This document shows, piece after piece, positions 5,132 through 22,852 of a stretch of DNA of 24,524 nt. A program made the position numbers and the translations under genes. Each line of letters begins with the position of its first letter. Positions within the stretch are counted from its first letter, which is position 1. This DNA comes from a virus. Taxonomy: Duplodnaviria > Caudoviricetes. The notes below the pieces were generated by a model. The model was not told the DNA's origin, did not search any database, and saw nothing but the letters and a program-made list of their open reading frames with translations. Where the stretch lies: the IMG/VR virus record IMGVR_UViG_3300017784_001085, positions 1 to 24,524 of that record; one strand, 5' to 3'.

Positions 5132-5331
5132 TGGACGGCAAGATGATTGCTGGCTTGATGGGAAAGAAATCGAACCAGGTTGCCAAGGGGATGTCGGCTT
5201 CTGTTGACGTAGATCCGCTGGAGCGTTTGAACCAGCGGATGGCTGGCCGGACGGAGGGCGGTGCGGTTAAGAAGAAGACTAAGGAAGACCGTGCGCGTCA
5301 ATCTTTGATGTCTAGCTATAGGAGTATGTGA
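5128..5331 (+). CDS. Hypothetical protein (67 aa)
   Basis: Overlaps both neighbouring genes (translational coupling) and fills the gap before the portal. Confidence 0.65.
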   Translation: MMDGKMIAGLMGKKSNQVAKGMSASVDVDPLERLNQRMAGRTEGGAVKKKTKEDRARQSLMSSYRSM

Positions 5332-6941
5332 TGCAGGTTGATCCGCTGGTTGCTAAGCTTGATCGTCGTTATCAAGACTTGTCGAATGCCCGGTCTAACT
5401 GGGAGAAGCACTGGCAAGAGCTGGCGGATTACATGTTGCCGCGCAAGGCTGACATCACGAAGAAGCGTACTCAGGGTGATAAGCGCACTGAGTTGATTTT
5501 TGACGGCACGGCCATTCACGCGGTTGAGCTGTTGGCGGCTTCGTTGCATGGGATGATGACAAGTCCGAGCGCGCCGTGGTTTTCCTTGCGGTATCGTAAC
5601 CCTAGTTTGCAGGGCAATGACGCTGCGAATGAGTGGTTGGAAATCTGCATTGACCAGATGTACCAGGCGTTTCATCGTTCGAATTTCCAACAAGAAGTGC
5701 ATGAGCTGTATTATGACTTGGTGGTGTTTGGCACGGGTGCCATTTACTTGGACATTGACGGCACTAATCTACGGTTTGGCACTCGACACATTGCCGAGAT
5801 TTGCATTTCTGAGGATTCGAAGGGTTTTGTTGATACGGTGTATCGCAAGTTTAAGATGACGGCTCGGGCTATGGAGCAGCAGTTTGGGGCTAATTTGCCC
5901 ACTGGCGTGCTGAATGACGTTAAGAACGAGCCGTACAAGGAGCATGATATTGTCCATGTGGCTTACCCGCGTGGTGAGGTCAATGGCAGGGGCAGGGTTG
6001 CTAAGAACAAGCCGATTGCGTCGGTTTATTACCACAAAGCAACCAAGGCGCTGTTATCTGAGAGCGGGTTTGACGAATTCCCGTTTATGGTGCCTCGGTT
6101 TGTGAAGGACAGTGTCTCAACGTATGGCCGATCGCCCGCAATGACGGCGCTTCCTGACGTGAAAATGCTAAACAAGATGTCAGAGACCACGATCCGCGCG
6201 GCCCAAAAACAAGTAGATCCGCCTTTGATGGCGCCGGATGATGGGTTCATGCTGCCAATCCGCACAACGCCTGGGTCGCTGAACTTCTACCGGGCTGGCA
6301 CGCGCGATCGGATTGAGCCTTTGCAGATTGGCGCGAACAATCCGCTGGGTTTGAACATGGAAGAACAGCGCCGGATGGCTATTCGCCAGGCGTTTTATGT
6401 GGATCAGTTGCTGTTGGCGCAGGGTTCGGCAATGACGGCAACCGAAGTGTTGCAACGGAACGAAGAGAAGATGCGGTTGCTTGGTCCGGTTTTGGGCCGA
6501 TTGCAATCGGAGCTGCTGCAGCCTCTGATCTCTCGTGCCTTTGCACTGCTCCTCAGGGCGGGTCTTCTCCCCCCGGCTCCTGAGGAGCTACAAGGTCAGG
6601 ACATTGATATTGAGTATGTGTCGCCGTTGGCGAAGGCTCAGAGACTGACGGATCTGCAGTCGATGCTGCGCGGGTTTGAGGTGATGATGCAGGTGGCTGA
6701 GATTGCGCCTGTGATGGATTACCTGGACGCCGACAAGCTGGTGCAGTATCTGGTTGAGGTCACTGGCATCCCTGCGCGGGTTATCCGATCAAATGAAGAG
6801 GTCGCCCGTATTCGCCGGCAGGCTCAGCAGGAGCAGCAACAGCAAGCGCAGATGCAGCAAGACATGATGGAGAGCGAGCAGGCCAAGAACGTGGCACCGC
6901 TCGTTAAGGCTGTTGGTGGTCTTCCTGGGGGTATGGCATGA
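5331..6941 (+). CDS. Portal / head-tail connector protein (T7 gp8/Bbp21 family)
   Basis: WQELADYMLP, FDGTAIHAVELLAASL, YGRSPAMTALPD and MTATEVLQRNEE motifs, Q-rich C-terminus. SD AGGAG 5320-5324; alternative GTG start at 5328. Confidence 0.95.
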   Translation: MQVDPLVAKLDRRYQDLSNARSNWEKHWQELADYMLPRKADITKKRTQGDKRTELIFDGTAIHAVELLAASLHGMMTSPSAPWFSLRYRNPSLQGNDAANEWLEICIDQMYQAFHRSNFQQEVHELYYDLVVFGTGAIYLDIDGTNLRFGTRHIAEICISEDSKGFVDTVYRKFKMTARAMEQQFGANLPTGVLNDVKNEPYKEHDIVHVAYPRGEVNGRGRVAKNKPIASVYYHKATKALLSESGFDEFPFMVPRFVKDSVSTYGRSPAMTALPDVKMLNKMSETTIRAAQKQVDPPLMAPDDGFMLPIRTTPGSLNFYRAGTRDRIEPLQIGANNPLGLNMEEQRRMAIRQAFYVDQLLLAQGSAMTATEVLQRNEEKMRLLGPVLGRLQSELLQPLISRAFALLLRAGLLPPAPEELQGQDIDIEYVSPLAKAQRLTDLQSMLRGFEVMMQVAEIAPVMDYLDADKLVQYLVEVTGIPARVIRSNEEVARIRRQAQQEQQQQAQMQQDMMESEQAKNVAPLVKAVGGLPGGMA

Positions 6942-12086: not shown

Positions 12087-12094
12087 GGTGAGTG

Positions 12095-12622
12095 ATGTCT
12101 TTGTTCGGGCTAATCTCTCTAGGGGCATCGCTTCTCGGCGGCGCATCGCAAAAACGTGCCTCTGACCGTGCTGCCGCTGAGGCGAAAAAAATTGGTGAGT
12201 TCAACGCTAAAATCATTGAACGCGACATCGATCTGCTTGAACGCCAGCGCCAGATCTTTAATGCAAACTTCGTAACCCAAACTGAGCGCAGCAAGAGATC
12301 ATTTGAGCGGGATGTGCAAGGCTCCGTGCGTGCCGGTTTCGGCTCTGCCGGCATCGACATCTCGCAAGGCTCTCCGATGCAAATACTTCGTGAGAATGCT
12401 CGCGAATTCCAGTATGAACAGGATGTGGCCGAGTTCAATAGCAAGATCGTTAATATGCAGATTACCGACCAGCAGGAAAATGCGCGACTTAATGCGAAGA
12501 TGTCTCGCATGGAAGGCAGTGCGCAGGCTGCAGGCCTACGCGCACAGGGGACTGCCAGCTTGATCAGTTCCATTGGTCAAGCCGCCCAAATTGGCTATGA
12601 ATACAAGTTTTTTGGGGGCTAA
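12095..12622 (+). CDS. Internal virion (ejection) protein, T7 gp14-like
   Basis: Hydrophobic Gly-rich N-terminus, Q/A-rich helices, GSAGIDISQGSP motif. SD GAGGT; alternative GTG start at 12092. Confidence 0.75.
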   Translation: MSLFGLISLGASLLGGASQKRASDRAAAEAKKIGEFNAKIIERDIDLLERQRQIFNANFVTQTERSKRSFERDVQGSVRAGFGSAGIDISQGSPMQILRENAREFQYEQDVAEFNSKIVNMQITDQQENARLNAKMSRMEGSAQAAGLRAQGTASLISSIGQAAQIGYEYKFFGG

Positions 12623-12625
12623 TCC

Positions 12626-14842
12626 ATGCGCATTCCAGTCTTCCGTTCTGAAGCTCAAGCTACTAGCGAGGCGCCAGGGTCACGCATTACGGCGCGAATG
12701 AACGCAGCGCCTTTTATCCAGGCTGCTTTGAGCAAGGGCGATGTTTTAACTGAGGCCGTCAATCAGGTTGGTGAGTATGCGCTGATGCGTGCCAAGGCTG
12801 ATGCTGAAGTCCAGTACAGCGAGGCCATGCTTGCAGCCGACGAAGAGATGCGCGTTCTTGCGGAAGACTTCAGCAAGACCGGTCGGCTTGAAGATGTCAT
12901 TAATGAAAATGGTGCATGGCGCACCAGAACCAAAGACATCCGCGATCGCCTGGCTGACAATCTGTCCAGCCGATCAATGACAGATGCCTTTAACTCACGC
13001 TTTAGTCAGCAAGAGTTGACGCTGCGTTTCCAACTGCGCGACTCAATTCAGTCGCGGATGGAGCGCCAAATTGGCGAGGCTCGTGCGCAAAGGATAAAGA
13101 GCGCTGAAGACAGCATTGCTAATGGAACAGACATTGGCATGTTGAACATGGTGCTGACTGGCGTAGGAGTTGACACAAATCGGCTTGAGCAATTCGGCCT
13201 TGGCAATCCAGAAGCCCTCAAGGCTCAAGAGTATAGCCTCCTTAAAGACGGCACGACCCGTGCCGCGATCAAATATATTGAAGAGCAAGATCTGTCGATC
13301 GCTGCGGCGAGCCGGCTTCACGAGGCTTTGAAGACAGACGACCCGTCAAAGATCCCTGACGCTCGTGGCCTCTATGTTTACAGCCTGATGCAGAAACTAG
13401 ACCCGGTTGATCGGGTGTCTATTCTGAAGACTGTCAACGGCCTTTCGGAATATGTGAACGGCCCGACCCTAGAACAAGAGCAGTTTCAGCTTCGTACACA
13501 GGGTGCGTTCAAAGAAACCAAACAATCAATCTCCTCGGCTGTCTCTACCCTTAAAAGTGGTGGGACTATTCCAGATGCTGAATGGGCGCAAGTCGGCTCT
13601 GTCATCAGTTCCGCTAGGGATGCGGGAATAGATCCTGGCTTGGTGGCTGCAGTCGAAACTCAGTATCAGGACGCCTCGTTCCTTCGCGACCTGTCCAACG
13701 AAGTGAAAATTGCTACGCCGCTTCAGGTACAGAATATCCTGACCGATCTGGAAAGCGGCACAACATTTGGCGCGGCAGGTCTTGATACAAACCGCGAGCA
13801 AATCGCAACTGATTTCTTGAGATCCTTCAAGGACAATATGCAAAAGGCCATCACTCAGGATGGAGGCTTGTCATGGGGCAACCAAAATGGTCAGGTCAGA
13901 TTGCAGCCGATTGACACCTCGTTTGCTCAGCCTATGCCAGAGTTGGCCCAGGCACGGATCAATGATGCAATGAAGGTTCGCGATCTATACCGCCCAACGC
14001 CGATCGGAATCCCATCCGCAACACCTGTTTTCTTGCTGCAGGCTGAGCGTGATCAGGTCGCAGCAAACTTTAATGCGGCTTCCCCAGTGCAAAAGCTTCA
14101 GATGATCTCAAACATCAATCAGAGCTTTGGTGGATATGCTCCTTCTGTCATTGCTGAGATCGCGCCAAAGGTTCCGGCGATGGGGCATGTCGCCGGTCTT
14201 TTGAGCGACGGCCAGGGGGCTACGGCTGAGATGGTTGTCACCGGCCTTACGTTGCTTGCGGCTGGCAACAAACCAGGTGGCGCCACTCCGGAGATGACTG
14301 AGCCTTTCGTGCGCGAAATCGTTTCGTCGTCTCTGTCGTTTTTGCCTGAAAGTGTGAACGCGCAACTCACCGCCGCATTGAATGAATCGGCTATGGCGCA
14401 CTACACAGGAGAAGCCAGTCGGCGCGGTGTAGTCGATTTTGATCCTGACCTCTGGCAGAAATCGGTCTTGGCTGTGACGGGCTACAACAACGCAACTGGA
14501 CGCGGTGGCATTCAAGAGGTTCGCGGCATTCAGACCATGTTGCCGCCGACGATGACTGCAGATGACGCAGAAAACCTACTGTCTAGGCTTGACACCAAAG
14601 GAGCCTATCGTCCTGTCCCCTGGAACAAAGACTTGCTCATCGACACAGATACATCTGAAATGCTTGCAGAGGCATCTGATGATGATGAGTACAAGGCAAT
14701 GGTCTTTGGCAAAGACGAGCAAGGGCGTCAGGTTTACGCTCTCACCTACGGCCAGTATGGCGATAATTCGTTTGCTGTTATGATTGACGGAAGAGGCGAT
14801 ACGATCACGTTCACCTTCGAAGATCTGATGGAGCTTGAATAA
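12626..14842 (+). CDS. Internal virion (ejection) protein, T7 gp15-like position
   Basis: MRIPVF start, long alpha-helical 738-aa ORF, synteny. Confidence 0.75.
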   Translation: MRIPVFRSEAQATSEAPGSRITARMNAAPFIQAALSKGDVLTEAVNQVGEYALMRAKADAEVQYSEAMLAADEEMRVLAEDFSKTGRLEDVINENGAWRTRTKDIRDRLADNLSSRSMTDAFNSRFSQQELTLRFQLRDSIQSRMERQIGEARAQRIKSAEDSIANGTDIGMLNMVLTGVGVDTNRLEQFGLGNPEALKAQEYSLLKDGTTRAAIKYIEEQDLSIAAASRLHEALKTDDPSKIPDARGLYVYSLMQKLDPVDRVSILKTVNGLSEYVNGPTLEQEQFQLRTQGAFKETKQSISSAVSTLKSGGTIPDAEWAQVGSVISSARDAGIDPGLVAAVETQYQDASFLRDLSNEVKIATPLQVQNILTDLESGTTFGAAGLDTNREQIATDFLRSFKDNMQKAITQDGGLSWGNQNGQVRLQPIDTSFAQPMPELAQARINDAMKVRDLYRPTPIGIPSATPVFLLQAERDQVAANFNAASPVQKLQMISNINQSFGGYAPSVIAEIAPKVPAMGHVAGLLSDGQGATAEMVVTGLTLLAAGNKPGGATPEMTEPFVREIVSSSLSFLPESVNAQLTAALNESAMAHYTGEASRRGVVDFDPDLWQKSVLAVTGYNNATGRGGIQEVRGIQTMLPPTMTADDAENLLSRLDTKGAYRPVPWNKDLLIDTDTSEMLAEASDDDEYKAMVFGKDEQGRQVYALTYGQYGDNSFAVMIDGRGDTITFTFEDLMELE

Positions 14843-17800
14843 TGGGGATCATTCCGTCCCAGCCAGATCCACTAGCAATTGGTTCGTTCCCAACCAGGGG
14901 CAAGCCGATCGGTGAGCTGTCTGAAAATTTATCTATGGCTTTTAAGTCTGGTGTGGCAACTGGGCGCCAAGGCTTGATCTCGGGCCTTCGCAGCTCATTA
15001 GATCCAGTGGTCGAGCAAATCCGATCGGTAACGGGTGAGGACTTCTACAACCCTGCGATCTATATGGACACCGGCATATTATCTGCGCCTCATAGTTCCG
15101 ATACGCGAGAAGATAGATATAAATTTGAGCTTAGAAAAATTCAGAAATACGTTTCTGATAACAAGGACAAGTTTGATGCAGATTTTGTAACGCGCATCAC
15201 CGATCCGAAGTTTGACTTCAATTTGCGGAAAGGTGTCATTGAAGACGCGATAAGTACGATGGAAGAGGCCGATGAGCTTTTTGGTCGGTCTCCTGGAGCC
15301 GGCAACTACATGGCGCAGTTTGTCGGTGGAGCGGGGGCTGCGATCGTAGATCCCGTCAATCTCGAATCTATGTTGATTGGCGGCGCTGCCAAAAACCTGT
15401 GGAGCCTTGCGACGCAAGAGGCTCTAATTGGGGCAACCATCGAAGGCATCCAGCAGCCTGAGATTGCTGAATGGTATGCAACTCTGGGCCTTGAATACAC
15501 GTCTGAAGACTTTTTCACCAATGTTGGTCTTGCAGCGGTTGGAGGCGCGGCAATCCCGGTTGCTATCGCCGGCGCTAATCGTGGGGTATCCTTCACTATT
15601 AACCAAGCAAAATCTGGCATTGCAGCCCTGCGCAAGTCTGGTGTCAAGCTGTCGCCGGAAGCTGAGACGCTATTGCTCAAAGCGCAAAACGCGGAAGATC
15701 TTGCAGCGGCAAATCCGCTGACCTCTTCGGCAAAAGGTCAAGCCGAGCATAAGGCACGCGTGTCTGATGCAATTGCTGCTGTTGAGGCCAACCAGCCGCC
15801 AGCGATCTCGAACCAGCCTCAGACGCCACCAGCCCCAGCCAAATCGATTGACGCATACGACAACCTTGATGGCGTCATCTTCAAGTTTAACCCAGACGAG
15901 ATCGAAATCGATGCTGAGACGTTCCAGTTCAAGGCTGGTGGCGATGCTTTCGGCGTGACCGAACGTCTGCAGGGGGTCACCACTTGGGACCCAATCAAAG
16001 CGGGAAACGTCACCATCTACGAATACGCTGATGGTAGTAAGTTTATCGCAGACGGCCACCAGCGCGTTGGTCTGGCAAAGCGCATCAAGGCTTCTGACCC
16101 AAGCCAAAATGTTGTGATGTACGGCATGAAACTGAGAGAGGTTGATGGCGTCAGCCCTCAAGAGGCAATGGTGATTGCCGCACTCAAGAACATCTCTGAA
16201 GGCACCGGAACGGCAATCGATGCTGCCAAGGTCTTGCGCACGGCGCCTGGTCGCGTCACCGAGCTGCCGCCGCGCTCGCCGTTTGTACGGCAGGCCCGTG
16301 AGCTGACCAACCTAAGCGATGAGGCCTGGGGCATGGTGCGCAATGAGGTCGTCCCGTCAAACTATGCCGCCATTGTTGGAAGGCTGGCATCAAGCGACCC
16401 TGACATGCAGACAGCAGCGATGGGTGTTCTGGCGAAAGCAGATCCTGCCAATGAGTTTCAGGCCGAGGCGATCGTGCGCCAGGTCATGGCGACACCGATC
16501 TCTCGTGAGATGCAGGAAAACTTGTTTGGCGAAGAGATGGTGGTTGAAAGTCTGTTTGCAGAACGGGCTAAGATCCTAGATCGCGCACAGAAGCAGCTCC
16601 GCAAAGATCTTTCTACGTTCAAAAACCTAGTAGAGAACCAGTCTCGGATCGAAGGCGAGGGCAACCAGCTTGCCACCGAGTCAAACCAGAAAAGGATTAA
16701 TGAAGATGGCACCGCAATTGCCTTCCTCCAAAGCCAAGCCAACCGAAAAGGTGCAATCGCAGATGCGCTCAACGCCGCCGCTCGAGGCGCAAAATCCACT
16801 GGGAATATCGCCTCGGCTACTCGAAATTTCGTCGAGTCTGTCAGACGAGCAATTGACTCGGGCGACTATGACAGCGCAGCGATTAGTGATGCAGGAAGCA
16901 ATATCAATGTTGCAGCGCCGGAACGCTCAGTACGAAATAGCATTGAGCAAGAACAGTTAGACTCTTTTGACGATCCAGGTGGATCTGGCGCTGAAGACCA
17001 GGCGCGTGTCTTCGAGCAGGACTTCTTCCAAGAGATGCAAGCGCTCTTGCCGCCTCAGTTCGATGTTGCTGCCACTATCAGCTCTATGGTGGCTGGGGTC
17101 GATCGTGTCCTCATCAGCGGCCCGTCTCTCAGCAAGATCCAGCTTGATGAGCTGGCATCTAATCTGAAGGCCACACAGCCATACGACACTCTTGACACTC
17201 TAATGGTGGCGGCGGCTCGCAACCATGCGGAGTTGAACGATGCGGCGCAAACAGCCGCACGCGACCTTGGCATGGAGTTTGAGTCGGCACCTCTCAAGAA
17301 GGCCAAGCGGACGCAAGAAAAAGTCGAAGACAAGTACGCCGGCAACTATCGCAAGATTGCCGATGTCGCCCGTACCGGCATCACAGCCCGCACGTTTGAT
17401 GAGGCTGAAAACTTTGTTGCAGCTCTGGCGGCCAAGTTTCACCTAGTTGATGAGGGATGGTCGGTCACGCCTGTTGGCTACTTCGACCGCAAGATCATGG
17501 TGCGCTTTGATGACGGGCAGCTAGGCGAGATCCAAATCTGGCCGCCTGGTATGCGTGACGCCAAGAGCGACGAAGGCGGCGGCGGCCACAAGCTATATGA
17601 AATCTCGCGCGATCCGCTGCAGTCGATCGAAGATCGCCTGGCCGCTGAAGCCAAGATGATTGAGCTGTATGGCAACGTGCAAGCTACGCTTGATCCGTCG
17701 TTCGCTCAGAAGATTGGGGTCGGTGCGCCGCGTGATGCTAAAGCATCTGCAGCCTCTGTGGCTGAAAGCTCTACAGCTCTTTCGTCAGCCAATATCTCAA

Positions 17801-18159
17801 GGGCCATTGCTCTGGAAGGGTCGCTCGGCAGCCAATCTGACCCGACGAGCAACTTGGCAAGGCCATTGTCTGAGACGGCTCCGATCTCGGAAACGTCAAA
17901 CCTGAACAGTCGCATAGGGGATACCTCCAACCAAGATATAGGCAGAGAGACGGTCGGCGTCAAGTCATCAGTTGCGGAAGAAGATATTGACATCCCGACA
18001 GTTGGTGAGTCTTTGCTGGACATGGAGTTTCCTACTGCTGAGAGGATCGATCCAGACACCGGCGAGATTGTCAGTGAAACGATCACTCCGCGCATGTTGC
18101 TAGATGAGCTGAACGCTGACAATATGATGATCGATAGATTGAGCAGGTGTCCAATATGA
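14842..18159 (+). CDS. Large multidomain internal virion protein with ParB-like and RelA/SpoT-like nucleotidyltransferase domains
   Basis: Gly/Ala-rich membrane-active N-terminal part; IADGHQR (aa ~402-408); LKKAKRTQEK, IADVAR, GYFD, EIQI and GHKLYE (aa 818-920). Coupled to both neighbours within the ejection-protein cluster. Confidence 0.85.
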   Translation: MGIIPSQPDPLAIGSFPTRGKPIGELSENLSMAFKSGVATGRQGLISGLRSSLDPVVEQIRSVTGEDFYNPAIYMDTGILSAPHSSDTREDRYKFELRKIQKYVSDNKDKFDADFVTRITDPKFDFNLRKGVIEDAISTMEEADELFGRSPGAGNYMAQFVGGAGAAIVDPVNLESMLIGGAAKNLWSLATQEALIGATIEGIQQPEIAEWYATLGLEYTSEDFFTNVGLAAVGGAAIPVAIAGANRGVSFTINQAKSGIAALRKSGVKLSPEAETLLLKAQNAEDLAAANPLTSSAKGQAEHKARVSDAIAAVEANQPPAISNQPQTPPAPAKSIDAYDNLDGVIFKFNPDEIEIDAETFQFKAGGDAFGVTERLQGVTTWDPIKAGNVTIYEYADGSKFIADGHQRVGLAKRIKASDPSQNVVMYGMKLREVDGVSPQEAMVIAALKNISEGTGTAIDAAKVLRTAPGRVTELPPRSPFVRQARELTNLSDEAWGMVRNEVVPSNYAAIVGRLASSDPDMQTAAMGVLAKADPANEFQAEAIVRQVMATPISREMQENLFGEEMVVESLFAERAKILDRAQKQLRKDLSTFKNLVENQSRIEGEGNQLATESNQKRINEDGTAIAFLQSQANRKGAIADALNAAARGAKSTGNIASATRNFVESVRRAIDSGDYDSAAISDAGSNINVAAPERSVRNSIEQEQLDSFDDPGGSGAEDQARVFEQDFFQEMQALLPPQFDVAATISSMVAGVDRVLISGPSLSKIQLDELASNLKATQPYDTLDTLMVAAARNHAELNDAAQTAARDLGMEFESAPLKKAKRTQEKVEDKYAGNYRKIADVARTGITARTFDEAENFVAALAAKFHLVDEGWSVTPVGYFDRKIMVRFDDGQLGEIQIWPPGMRDAKSDEGGGGHKLYEISRDPLQSIEDRLAAEAKMIELYGNVQATLDPSFAQKIGVGAPRDAKASAASVAESSTALSSANISRAIALEGSLGSQSDPTSNLARPLSETAPISETSNLNSRIGDTSNQDIGRETVGVKSSVAEEDIDIPTVGESLLDMEFPTAERIDPDTGEIVSETITPRMLLDELNADNMMIDRLSRCPI
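17706..17915 (-). CDS. Nested antisense 69-aa protein; putative immunity/antitoxin for the RelA/SpoT-like domain
   Basis: MRLFRFDVSEIGAVSDNGLAKLLVGSDWLPSDPSRAMALEILADERAVELSATEAADALASRGAPTPIF*. SD GGAGGT (17928-17923) lies 7 nt before the ATG, with a promoter just upstream. The + frame here is a Ser-rich linker. Confidence 0.75.
   Translation of the reverse strand: MRLFRFDVSEIGAVSDNGLAKLLVGSDWLPSDPSRAMALEILADERAVELSATEAADALASRGAPTPIF
17935..17963 (-). promoter_or_regulatory. Sigma70-type promoter for the nested antisense gene
   Basis: The minus strand reads TTGACG (17963-17958), 17 nt, TATATC (17940-17935). TTGACGC...GCCTATATC is close to the Caulobacter housekeeping consensus TTGaCgS...GCtANAWC. 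Confidence 0.7.
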
Positions 18160-20624
18160 GCTTTAGAAACTGCATAGACAATGCCGAGCTTTCGGGCGAG
18201 ATTACGCCAGAGCAAGCAACAACGGCGCGAGATCTGTTTGACGAGCTGGACGCCGAATACCAGGGCAAGATGAACAAAGCTTCGGCGCAAGCCAAAGCCG
18301 GTCAGGATACGTTTGACACGTTGCGCAGGCAGGCTATCCGCCGCAAGCGCAATAAGGTTGCGCAATTGCGGTCCTGGCAACAAATCACCAAAAACATGGA
18401 CGGCTACACCGATCGGTTTGGCCGTAAAGATCCATTCAGTGGCGCTCTTGCAATCTTTGAGCAAGACACCTTGTCCACATTCTCAAGCGTTACTCAGCGC
18501 ATTGAGGAAGTTAAGAGCGAAGCTTTCTCAGGCATGTCGTCGTTCTTGGCAGAATTCCGCCGCAATCTAATCGGTGAGGTGCGCCAGAAGGCAAAGCTCA
18601 AGAATGTTGCGCGTGAGATCTTTGGCGAATCGACCGGCGATGCTTCCGCAAGTGAGCTGGCCCAAGCTTGGAACAAAACGGCAGAAATAATGAGGAAGCG
18701 TTTCAACATGGCCGGCGGCGCCATTCCCAAGCGCAGCGACTGGGGCTTGCCGCAAGTCCACGATCAGCTTGCAGTGATGAAGGCAGGCTACACGCAATGG
18801 CGCGATTACATCGCTCCTAGGCTAAACGCCAACAAGATGGTTGACGAAACCACTGGGCTTCCGTTCTCACCGCAAAAGCTAGAACTTGCCCTGCGTGATG
18901 TGTATGAAAGCATAAGCACGGATGGCATGAACAAACTGAAGCCTGGCGGCCAGTCGTCTGGAAAATCAATTGCCAACCGTCGCCAAGATCATCGCTTCTT
19001 GGTATTCAATGACGCAAACACATGGCTGCAGTACCAGGAAAAATTTGGCAACTCCAATGTCTTTGACACGATGATTGCTCACATCGACATGATGGCGCGT
19101 GATATCGGCATGATGGAAATCATGGGGCCAAACCCTAAAGCAACTGCGACATTCATCAAGCAGACGCTGACCAAGAAAGCCGGCGGTGATCCGGCAATGG
19201 CCAATCGTGCGCGCGGCACATCGAAGACGATCGATGAGCTGTACATGGCAATCACCGGCAACGTAAACGCACCGATCAACTCGTTCTTTGCGGCCACGTT
19301 TGCAGGAACCCGCCAGGTTCTGCAATCTGCGCAGCTTGGATCTGCGGCAATCGCTGCAATCACCGACATCAACTTTCAACGCATGGCGCGAAACTTTGCC
19401 GGCCTGCCGCAAACCAGGATGCTCGGGCAATATCTCAAATTACTAAATCCGCTGGATGCAAAAGAGAAAGGTGAGTTGGCAATTCGCCTTGGCCTGATCG
19501 CTGAAGGTTGGACCAGCATTGCATCTGCGCAGATGCGCTATGTTGGCGACATCTCCGGCCCTGAGGTGACGCGCCGAGTGGCTGACTTCGTGATGCGTGC
19601 GTCTTTGCTTTCGCCAATGACGCAAGCAGGGCGCTGGTCTTTCGGCATGGAATTTATGGGAACGCTTGCCGACAGCGTAAGCAAGACGTTTGATGATCTT
19701 CCGCCAATGCTCAAAAAGACATTGGAGCGGTATGACATCGGATCTGATCGGTGGGACATGATCCGCGCAACTGATCTGTACAACGAGCAAGGCGCCAAGT
19801 TCCTGCGCCCGCTTGATGTGAAGTCTCGCACAGATTTAACGCCACAGATGGCCAACCAGCTCGGCATTCGTCTAATGGAGATGATCAACACAGAAACCAA
19901 CTTTGCCGTGCCATCTACGTCGGTTCGTGGTCGGGTTGCTTTAACTGGTGACACCAGACCAGGCACGATTGCCGGCGAGCTGACCAGATCTTTTGCAATG
20001 TACAAAGGGTTCGGCATTACCCTGCTAAACACGCACCTGATGCGCGGCATGAACCAAGCCGGCGTTAAGGGAAAGGGCGTGTACTTCGCGGATCTGTTGA
20101 TCTCTGCTACGGTCATGGGTGCCCTAGCAATGCAGCTCAAAGAGATGTCAAAGGGGCGTGACCCTCGGCCTATGGATTCACCTGAGTTTTGGGGCGCTGC
20201 ATTCTTGCAGGGTGGTGGACTAGGGATCTACGGCGATTTCTTGTTCTCGGACGTAAACAGATTTGGCGGTGGCTTGGCTCAAACGATCGCTGGCCCGGTC
20301 GTTGGGTTTGCAAACGATGTGCGCAATCTGACCCTTGGCAACTTGATGGAGGTTGCATCGGGCAAAGACACCAACGCAGCATCTGAGATGGTAAAGTTTG
20401 TTCAGCGCTACACTCCTGGCGCATCTCTGTGGTACATGCGTCTTGGGCTTGAGCGTATGCTGTTCGATCGGCTTCAGCTGTATGCAGATCCAAAAGCCTC
20501 GCAAAAGTTCCGTTCTGTGCAGAACAAATACAAGAGAGAATATGATCAGGATTATTGGTGGGCGCCAGGAAACCCAACGCCGTCTCGCGCTCCAAATATC
20601 AGTTCCGCCTTACCAGGTGGATGA
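18156..20624 (+). CDS. Large internal virion (ejection) protein
   Basis: ATGA overlap with the upstream stop; MSFRNCI start; WGLPQVHD, HRFLVF, TRPGTIAGELTRSFAMYKGF and AFLQGGGLGIYGDFLF, typical of BPP-1-like core proteins. Confidence 0.85.
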   Translation: MSFRNCIDNAELSGEITPEQATTARDLFDELDAEYQGKMNKASAQAKAGQDTFDTLRRQAIRRKRNKVAQLRSWQQITKNMDGYTDRFGRKDPFSGALAIFEQDTLSTFSSVTQRIEEVKSEAFSGMSSFLAEFRRNLIGEVRQKAKLKNVAREIFGESTGDASASELAQAWNKTAEIMRKRFNMAGGAIPKRSDWGLPQVHDQLAVMKAGYTQWRDYIAPRLNANKMVDETTGLPFSPQKLELALRDVYESISTDGMNKLKPGGQSSGKSIANRRQDHRFLVFNDANTWLQYQEKFGNSNVFDTMIAHIDMMARDIGMMEIMGPNPKATATFIKQTLTKKAGGDPAMANRARGTSKTIDELYMAITGNVNAPINSFFAATFAGTRQVLQSAQLGSAAIAAITDINFQRMARNFAGLPQTRMLGQYLKLLNPLDAKEKGELAIRLGLIAEGWTSIASAQMRYVGDISGPEVTRRVADFVMRASLLSPMTQAGRWSFGMEFMGTLADSVSKTFDDLPPMLKKTLERYDIGSDRWDMIRATDLYNEQGAKFLRPLDVKSRTDLTPQMANQLGIRLMEMINTETNFAVPSTSVRGRVALTGDTRPGTIAGELTRSFAMYKGFGITLLNTHLMRGMNQAGVKGKGVYFADLLISATVMGALAMQLKEMSKGRDPRPMDSPEFWGAAFLQGGGLGIYGDFLFSDVNRFGGGLAQTIAGPVVGFANDVRNLTLGNLMEVASGKDTNAASEMVKFVQRYTPGASLWYMRLGLERMLFDRLQLYADPKASQKFRSVQNKYKREYDQDYWWAPGNPTPSRAPNISSALPGG

Positions 20625-21904: not shown

Positions 21905-22339
21905 ATGGCAATTACACTCGACGGAACAACTGGCATTACAGCATCTGATGGACTTGTTTATACAAGAGGCAATATCCTCGGAACAGTTACGCAGTCTGCT
22001 GGTGTCCCTACTGGTGCTATTATTGAGAGTGGATCAAATGCCAATGGCGAGTATGTGAAATATGCTGACGGGACAATGATTTGCTGGAATTACGCTCTGA
22101 CAACACAAGCCTCCTCAACAGCTACTGGAAACATGTTTAGAACTGCTACCGTCTCTACATGGACTTTCCCTGTAACTTTTTTGGTGGACCCCGTAGTAAG
22201 TGGTCAAGCAGACGCGACTGGAAGGATTCTGACAATAGATCCCGCATCTACCACAACTGTTGACTTTAGACAGCATTCCGCAAGTAGTTCAGGAACCCTC
22301 GTTGGAAACAAACTAACAGCTACTGGACAGTGGTTCTAA
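21905..22339 (+). CDS. Tail fibre-associated protein, copy 1 (gp53-like C-terminal domain)
   Basis: NANGEYVKYADGTMICW and TWTFPVTF motifs of phage fibre tip domains. Confidence 0.75.
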   Translation: MAITLDGTTGITASDGLVYTRGNILGTVTQSAGVPTGAIIESGSNANGEYVKYADGTMICWNYALTTQASSTATGNMFRTATVSTWTFPVTFLVDPVVSGQADATGRILTIDPASTTTVDFRQHSASSSGTLVGNKLTATGQWF

Positions 22340-22852
22340 AGGAAAAACAAAATGAGCAACATCGCACTTACGCCCAATGCAAGTGGTACGGGAACTTTTA
22401 CTCTCGCAGCACCAAACAGCAACACCAACCGCACCCTGACGCTGCCTGATGCCGCTGGTGAGATTTACAACCAAGGTAATATCCTTGGCACTGTCAGTCA
22501 GTCTGCTGGTGTACCCACTGGGGCTATCATTGATAGCGACTCAAATGTTAATGGCGAGTATGTGAAATATGCTGATGGGACAATGATTTGCTGGAATTAC
22601 GCTCTGACAACCCAAAGCTCCACAACAGCTACTGGAAGCATGTTTAGAACTACTGCCGTCTCTACATGGACTTTCCCTGTAGCTTTTTTGGTGGCCCCTG
22701 TAGTAAGTGGTCAAGCAGAATCAAATATAAGGATTTTGACATTCGATACCCCAACCACCACAACCGTTGACTTTAGACATCATTCCGCAACTACTTCGGC
22801 AACCCTAGTTGCAAACAGACTAACAGCTATTGGACAATGGTTCTAAAGGAGA
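21968..22852 (+). repeat. Imperfect direct repeat of about 375 bp (21968-22345 vs 22475-22852)
   Basis: Gapless alignment at a constant 507-bp offset up to and including both stop codons, with long identical blocks. Confidence 0.9.
22352..22846 (+). CDS. Tail fibre-associated protein, copy 2 (paralogue of 21905-22339)
   Basis: SD AAGGA; APNSNTNRTLTLPDA N-terminus followed by the same domain as copy 1. Confidence 0.75.
   Translation: MSNIALTPNASGTGTFTLAAPNSNTNRTLTLPDAAGEIYNQGNILGTVSQSAGVPTGAIIDSDSNVNGEYVKYADGTMICWNYALTTQSSTTATGSMFRTTAVSTWTFPVAFLVAPVVSGQAESNIRILTFDTPTTTTVDFRHHSATTSATLVANRLTAIGQWF

Follow-up and report, generated by a model that had tools for sequence, protein, structure and literature searches.

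A Predicted Alarmone Synthetase Domain and a Nested Antisense Gene as a Swappable Cassette in a Phage Carrier Protein

Introduction

Can one stretch of a phage structural gene hold, on its two strands, both a predicted toxin domain and the gene for its antidote? The question is raised by a 1105-amino acid (aa) carrier gene in virus record IMGVR_UViG_3300017784_001085, which was analysed as one stretch of 24,524 nucleotides (nt), here called the window. Within this gene, a RelA/SpoT-like domain on the plus strand is followed by a Ser-rich segment that reads on the minus strand as a 69-aa open reading frame (ORF), which an earlier interpretation of the letters of the window (the sequence-only reading) had taken to be the immunity partner of a virion-delivered toxin. 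In prokaryotes, antisense protein genes that are wholly nested and clearly under selection are rare and a matter of dispute. The explanation we favour, with a probability of roughly 0.62, is an Apk/Tis1-like toxin-immunity pair within a likely internal virion protein, with the immunity protein made early from a host-type promoter. The elements concerned are the following.

14842-18159, plus strand: carrier gene, 1105 aa, likely an internal virion protein with a swappable cargo slot (from gene order and relatives)
17209-17721, plus strand: RelA/SpoT-like small alarmone synthetase domain, closest to Tas1/Apk1 (from profile and model)
17706-17915, minus strand: nested antisense gene, 69 aa, predicted to form a compact β-sheet with two helices; likely Tis1-like immunity
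17923-17928, minus strand: Shine-Dalgarno (SD) sequence GGAGGT, 7 nt before the ATG of the nested gene
17935-17940, minus strand: -10 hexamer TATATC
17958-17963, minus strand: -35 hexamer TTGACG, 17 nt from the -10 hexamer
17706-17964, plus strand: Ser/Ala/Pro/Thr-rich linker, aa 955-1041, in which the antisense gene and its promoter are read through

The Nested Gene and Its Signals

The ORF extends from an ATG at 17915 to a TGA ending at 17706, lies wholly within the 1105-aa plus-strand ORF opposite aa 955-1025, and ends in the last 5 codons of the enzyme domain (aa ~790-960). The ORF, the GGAGGT and the TTGACG-17-TATATC promoter were all found where the sequence-only reading had placed them. 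The plus frame opposite the ORF is 21% Ser, and the open frame alone is not significant: it has its wobble positions in common with the plus frame and is open for 258 codons here, and a stop-free stretch of 60 codons has p~0.13 at the stop rate opposite the enzyme domain. When a fixed, training-free detector (promoter, SD, start and ORF) was applied to the window, six minus-strand ORFs of at least 40 aa carried an SD and one of these, the nested gene, had a full promoter, as expected from the earlier claim that it is the only convincingly signalled minus-strand gene. The site is missing from the output of a generic Escherichia coli-type promoter scan because its -10 hexamer ends in C. The final -10 base across 37 related promoters is C in 19 and T in 17, and most alphaproteobacterial sigma-70 promoters are described, in parts of PMC8407463, as being without the last T of the -10 element. 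No terminator was listed in the nested-gene/enzyme region by a consensus scan.

Databases contain the small protein mostly from short contigs, in keeping with the earlier expectation that standard gene callers would miss it. The small protein gave no match in Pfam, PHROGs or NCBIfam and no usable match in Atlas, a Foldseek comparison with viral models returned nothing at E 0.001, and tblastn against GenBank phages gave no match; 15 of the 19 database matches lie on contigs shorter than 3 kb.

Conservation and Selection on the Minus Frame

A total of 112 loci were examined, of which 91 were distinct after removal of 21 duplicates; L054, identical in sequence to the window, was taken as the window's own record and left out. 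The enzyme domain is internal in 71 distinct loci, and in every one of them the small ORF is nested in the same frame, as judged with a profile of 48 such sequences; a profile of 10 sequences recovered it in 59 of the 71 (E<0.01). The enzyme domains of the nested loci diverge to about 30% identity, and the nested proteins are 65-84 aa long with the stop at or near the enzyme-domain end. Tyr, His and Gln are nearly absent from the nested copies (7 of 3097 residues), and the free-standing protein of L031 has 3 Tyr and 2 Gln.

Substitutions were compared in 53 spanning-tree pairs of 65 distinct loci, leaving out L026, L031, L036, L085, L094 and L097 as well as duplicates. By plus-codon position the rates were 0.037/0.058/0.206 over the ORF versus 0.092/0.050/0.243 over the enzyme (Fisher p 3.6e-15), such that the pattern flips over the ORF and the best-protected base there is the second base of the minus codon; the earlier proposal of selection on the minus frame is thus borne out. 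Mean BLOSUM scores over the ORF were 0.00 in the minus frame and -0.47 in the plus frame, minus-frame replacements being the more conservative, whereas the values over the enzyme were 0.36 in the plus frame and -0.86 in the minus frame.

The promoter is conserved as TTGnnn-17-TAnnnn upstream of the small gene in 37 of 46 non-redundant loci, with a spacer that diverges in sequence. The nine loci without a standard promoter include the free-standing L031 and two that fit a shifted spacing, and in several exceptions (5 of 10 such loci checked) an insertion puts a promoter-like site 136-169 nt upstream. The insertion, of ~50 codons between this site and the SD in L022, L059, L074, L169 and L196, would give a long leader. 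Taken together, conservation in relatives, selection on the minus frame and the complete promoter-SD-ORF module indicate that the 69-aa ORF is almost certainly a real protein-coding gene under its own selection.

A Swappable Cargo Slot in the Carrier

Two parts of the carrier frame the region in which the cassette lies.

15871-16860, plus strand: conserved carrier core with a DGHQR motif, used as the anchor of a cargo-blind carrier search
17990-18159, plus strand: acidic C-terminal carrier tail ending in a Cys motif (boundary approximate)

The motif of the core, for which a Pfam match is absent, is presumably ParB/Srx-like. A carrier search with a single query gave 5 close relatives; the core anchor gave 268, of which the best 80 were fetched, 21 were dropped as truncated or identical, and the remaining 59 complete, non-identical carriers were classified. 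The slot held this RelA/SpoT-like cassette (cargo A) in 22 carriers, a second, divergent RelA/SpoT-like domain (cargo B; profile match to A 91%, E 1.2e-6) in six and a zeta-toxin-like kinase in 27 (PF06414 at E 1e-19 in the 2 tested), and was empty in four. The acidic tail is kept with every cargo type and with the empty slot. Cargo B has a nested antisense ORF of its own, 70-82 aa long, in the same frame and behind the same promoter. The six cargo B loci (L171, L178, L202, L206, L207 and L216, at about 5250-6130) gave no Pfam or PDB match; the zeta-like P-loop kinase lies at 4988-6304 of L145 and in 26 other carriers. In a further protein, P0176, the end of the synthetase domain is apparently followed directly by a zeta-like kinase, a possible recombinant.

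An SD with an ORF was found in 22/22 A, 6/6 B, 3/27 zeta-like and 0/4 empty carriers. The full promoter-SD-ORF module was found in 19/22 A, 4/6 B, 0/27 zeta-like and 0/4 empty carriers and in 0/59 control stretches; that is, in 23 of 28 RelA/SpoT carriers versus none of the 31 others. The module is therefore tied to RelA/SpoT-like cargo, as the sequence-only reading had anticipated. Cargo changes at least 20 times on a quick tree of the 59 carriers, and 10 independent pairs on the carrier tree (8.4 agreeing, 0 opposing) gave p 0.008. The swap points are sharp. Between L207 (B) and L110 (A), a stretch of 457 nt that begins at the antisense start codon and takes in the SD and promoter is 98% identical; this pair, together with L202/L061 and L206/L195, gives 89-98% identity from the antisense start codon through the promoter. 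Identity in the zeta/A pair L190/L198 resumes only at the -35 box. By these comparisons the cargo and small gene are swapped together, as one unit, between phages that are nearly identical elsewhere, and the portable in-frame cassette that had been proposed is accordingly upheld.

The Enzyme Domain and the Small Protein

Among solved structures, the family profile of the enzyme domain matches Tas1 best (E 2.8e-16), followed by SaSAS (7e-4). The K, K, D..R, GY and E.Q residues of the family align with the same residues of Tas1; across 53 sequences K30, D52, R55, E107 and Q109 are invariant and K38, G90 and Y91 nearly so, and carrier residues K819, K827, D841, R844, Y880, E896 and Q898 are conserved. 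An AlphaFold2 (AF2) model of the enzyme (pLDDT 93) has 6ox6_A as its best Foldseek match (E 1.7e-8), and VIA aligned 158 residues with Tas1 at Z 14.8 and a root mean square deviation (rmsd) of 2.9, as compared with Z 11.2 for CapRel and 7.1 for FaRel2. The Pfam family RelA_SpoT (PF04607) does not match the domain of the window and matches 5 of 53 family members (best E 3.9e-6), so the RelA/SpoT-like assignment rests on the profile and structure matches. These matches place the enzyme among the small alarmone synthetases, nearest to Tas1/Apk1. Its product is rather likely (p)ppApp.

The small protein was modelled with four strands and two helices (pLDDT 94.2). The best structural match among 48,161 chains was Tis1 (6ox6_B; Z 4.1, rmsd 3.6, 61 aligned), a chain of 76 residues and thus similar in size. 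That separate searches hit both chains of one complex (6OX6) is suggestive of a Tas1/Tis1-like pair, though not proof. Complex prediction for the enzyme domain with the small protein gave 0.49, 0.00 and 0.01 in three runs against a mark of 0.32, with controls not folded, and was given no weight either way. Chains of ATfaRel2 and pZFD are not among the fold matches listed for the small protein, which does not thereby exclude them, and the YXXY motif is absent from it; the latter is a weak test because the overlap itself appears to suppress Tyr (3 in 3097 nested residues). In the parts of the literature consulted, Tis1-like proteins are described as inhibitors of (pp)pApp synthetases (PMC11782079), and depletion of ATP by Tas1/Apk2 as being blocked by Tis1/IapK (PMC10083569, PMC12226406). 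The small protein probably inhibits the enzyme. Of the toxSAS-type pair (toxic small alarmone synthetase with antitoxin) that the sequence-only reading envisaged, the synthetase with a small partner stands; the closest system is Tas1/Apk-Tis1 rather than the tRNA-targeting toxSAS and their antitoxins.

Genomic Setting of the Carrier

The window represents a podovirus-type late module in a record of 24.5 kb, estimated to be 68% complete, with genes for terminase, portal, capsid, tail tubes, a T7 gp14-like internal virion protein and tail fibres. Three large genes of 738, 1105 and 825 aa are found in this module, the second of which holds the cassette, and the carrier is flanked by the T7 gp14-like gene and by phrog_992 and phrog_684 virion genes.

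12092-12622, plus strand: T7 gp14-like internal virion protein (context)
18147-20624, plus strand: virion structural protein phrog_684 (context)

The carrier had no PAAR domain in a Pfam scan and no MuF domain in Pfam and PHROGs scans, and 145 aa lie after the enzyme domain. Being large, mosaic, multidomain and located in a virion gene module, it fits the pattern of polyvalent proteins, and from the gene order it is probably an internal virion protein that is packaged and injected. Elsewhere in the window, two adjacent paralogous short tail-fibre-like genes (21905-22339 and 22352-22846), both phrog_2712, have repeated flanking sequence, and a 61-aa minus-strand ORF at 13228, inside the 738-aa virion gene, has a 7-base SD match and no promoter.

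Forms outside the Nested Layout

The enzyme domain has 870 relatives among 50%-identity representatives. In the best 150 of these the domain is internal in 104, with a plus-frame trace of a hidden gene in 54, and C-terminal in 46, with no such trace. Among 19 proteins scanned, the carriers of the domain include LPD38, ART-PolyVal and ddrB-ParB polyvalent proteins, portals and one MuF protein.

Convergent, separate small genes lie behind C-terminal enzyme domains in L031, L094 and L223, the small gene of L223 overlapping tail to tail in the same frame (21 of 62 loci examined). P0223, a singleton, has the small-protein domain fused in frame behind the enzyme (aa 731-787, E 4.3e-7); the fused stretch, aa 553-787 on a single contig, may be a natural fusion or the product of a lost stop. 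In three loci, a separate minus-strand ORF downstream of the carrier contains the small domain two to three times in tandem (L261:4408-5421, L263:4329-5534 and L265:4454-5095). These copies resemble an orphan-immunity array, and the nested copy of L261 has a different start and may be damaged. As the family has free-standing, fused and nested forms, the route to the overlap is traceable. In a further clade of loci (L037-L052, L120-L125, L268, L275 and L276) the domain ends the protein, in a virion module; one candidate partner, on the strand opposite the following gene of L047, was rejected, being without an SD, promoter or profile match and interrupted in L037.

A prophage of Palleronia pelagia DSM 26893 is a carrier, with the cassette, integrases and a repressor. 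The region concerned (G001:C5:1-45000; L138-L140) is apparently the whole prophage, with two integrase-like genes and a repressor. A search for tyrosine integrases, the only type covered, gave a match in 1 of 11 records, the one with a free-standing gene, and in 0 of 10 nested-form virus records; 9 further loci were not searchable. The lysogen role that had been suggested for the pair is thus not general among the nested forms, although one carrier is a prophage.

Discussion

The data suggest a two-gene cassette held by both strands of one phage gene and composed of a predicted toxin domain and a Tis1-like immunity protein. On entry of the DNA, host sigma-70 polymerase would transcribe the small gene, such that the inhibitor precedes the carrier, a product of the late operon. 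The inhibitor would plug the acceptor-nucleotide site of the enzyme as Tis1 does, and the cell that is building virions would keep its ATP. The carrier would then go into the particle and be ejected, unaccompanied by the inhibitor, into the next cell, in which the enzyme may make a short pulse of (p)ppApp until newly made inhibitor stops it. That the purpose of the pulse is to weaken ATP-dependent responses of the host is a tentative suggestion, for which we would give somewhat less than even odds. The nesting itself may be explained by the position of the enzyme in the middle of the protein, where an immunity gene could not follow downstream in the usual way. The likely origin is a convergent toxin-immunity pair in which in-frame read-through turned the immunity gene into a linker.

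Several observations weigh against this explanation. The assignment of the carrier to the virion rests solely on gene order, and no transcript or peptide evidence for the nested gene was found. The RNA looked at consisted of contigs from small shares of two runs, among them one of 197 nt, covering 17610-17806, that cannot show strand or expression. SaEAS and the (p)ppGpp-making RelP/RelQ match the enzyme model at Z 13.7-14.2 and are tied with Tas1. The fold match of the small protein to Tis1 is weak, and unrelated chains tie with it (Z 4.0 and 4.0); by Foldseek Tis1 is 34th, at E 6.1, with a TM-score of 0.46 that is the best listed. A profile of the small protein, whose family is short and divergent, did not list Tis1 (6ox6_B) among PDB sequences at E up to 10 and returned repeat-propeller noise only. 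To the eye, the small proteins of the two RelA/SpoT-like cargoes, A and B, resemble each other, but their profiles do not align (probability 1.8%). The zeta-like cargo is without a nested partner, so the carrier may itself keep its cargo quiet. In addition, the clade of ~465-490-aa carriers with a C-terminal domain keeps the invariant catalytic residues and has no nearby partner in 16 of 17 distinct loci; none was found by a second detector or in 5/5 whole records, three of them at least 99% complete.

This clade is also among the points that favour a different role for a real small protein, as a helper (a packaging or ejection chaperone, or an activator), or an enzyme that makes non-toxic (p)ppGpp and needs no antidote. 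The weak Tis1 match, structure scores that do not fix the product of the enzyme, and the description of SaEAS without an immunity gene in parts of PMC12691689 point the same way. A late assembly helper, however, needs no separate early-type promoter, and the strict co-exchange with the enzyme, the tandem orphan copies, which suit immunity, and the identity of the top fold match as a cognate immunity protein make such a role quite improbable. A less unlikely alternative, although still one to which we give a low weight, is that the same pair serves chiefly in competition between phages. A resident phage or prophage would make the inhibitor constitutively and tolerate its kin, and a particle with another cargo would poison cells held by non-kin, the slot being a kin-recognition locus. 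The repeated cargo changes on the carrier tree, the two cargo types with different small genes behind the same promoter, the tandem orphan copies in three loci and the prophage carrier with its integrases and repressor are in keeping with competition, as is the description of IapK proteins as mostly partner-specific in parts of PMC12226406; the lack of tyrosine integrases in the ten searchable nested-form records argues against it. Competition and the early-immunity mechanism favoured here may coexist.

Two further possibilities dispense with the small protein. The antisense unit might act as RNA, by antisense pairing or transcriptional interference that damps leaky toxin expression, with an incidental ORF: the conserved convergent promoter would transcribe into the enzyme coding region, where the consensus scan placed no terminator. 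Codon-position selection on the minus frame, an SD conserved in 28/28 RelA/SpoT carriers and the existence of sense-fused and free-standing homologues nonetheless make this very unlikely. The ORF could also be a shadow artefact, in which the minus frame has few stops because it lies opposite a Ser-rich linker, and the SD and promoter arose by chance, as the shared wobble positions, the 258 open codons, the p value for 60 codons and the omission of the site by the generic promoter scan would allow. The reversed codon-position pattern and the free-standing homologues effectively refute this, and the promoter-SD-ORF module, the swap points, the in-frame fusion and the nested ORF in 71/71 internal-domain loci stand against it as well.

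If the toxin-immunity explanation is correct, the cassette may belong to a widespread, unannotated class of dual-coding cassettes, in which injected alarmone toxins lie midway along virion proteins, have their antidotes antisense in the following linker and are swapped together with these, behind a hidden promoter that they share, as a weapon for kin recognition or for stunning the host; we lean towards this view. Further hidden immunity genes could then be sought in the Ser-rich linkers that follow other effector domains in polyvalent proteins. Apk/Tis1-like pairs would extend to a new kind of carrier, the podovirus-type internal virion proteins and giant polyvalent proteins, and the likely missing antidote for cloning and studying these enzymes would be supplied. 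The role of phage-carried alarmone toxins during infection becomes testable in P. pelagia DSM 26893, a harmless lysogen available in culture.

Comparison with Known Systems

The closest known system is Tas1/Apk1-Tis1 of the Pseudomonas aeruginosa type VI secretion system (PDB 6OX6), which provides the closest solved enzyme, with the same order of catalytic motifs, and a small partner of similar size that is the best structural match here. It differs in that the carrier of the window belongs to a phage structural module and is not a PAAR effector, the domain is internal, and the partner, which has no sequence match to Tis1, lies antisense inside the carrier with its own promoter. The MuF toxins of temperate phages, Apk2-IapK/BcTis1(-Aph1), are similar in their head-associated carrier, Apk-like domain, small partner and variable cargo, as far as the relevant parts of PMC10083569 and PMC12226406 describe them. 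In contrast, the present carrier is without MuF, its slot is internal with a conserved tail behind, its immunity gene is nested antisense instead of following in the operon, and most tested carriers are without a tyrosine integrase. No Aph1-like gene turned up in the window, where no search was aimed at one.

Polyvalent proteins with RelA/SpoT domains are likewise large, mosaic and virion-associated, and relatives of the domain occur in LPD38, ART-PolyVal and ddrB-ParB proteins and portals; the portions of PMC5512222 consulted describe no immunity partner and do not contain the word antisense, whereas here the linker is a second gene. The toxSAS modules FaRel-AT2faRel and FaRel2-ATfaRel2/CapRel also pair a small alarmone synthetase with a small structured antitoxin (PMC11782079, in part), but are stand-alone toxin-antitoxin operons, are structurally more distant from the enzyme than Tas1 and differ in the YXXY motif, absent here. 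In colicin operons, as parts of PMC6668396 set out, the immunity gene lies downstream of the toxin with opposite polarity; it is adjacent, not within the coding frame, and the proteins are unrelated. Five export domains are listed for Apk1 homologues, and this carrier is not among them (PMC12691689, section 9). No description of a nested antisense immunity or antitoxin gene was found in searches of open-access papers. The Apk-Tis1/IapK-like parts and the presence of RelA/SpoT domains in polyvalent proteins are therefore known, and what appears to be new, judging from sequence, is the gene layout and the carrier.

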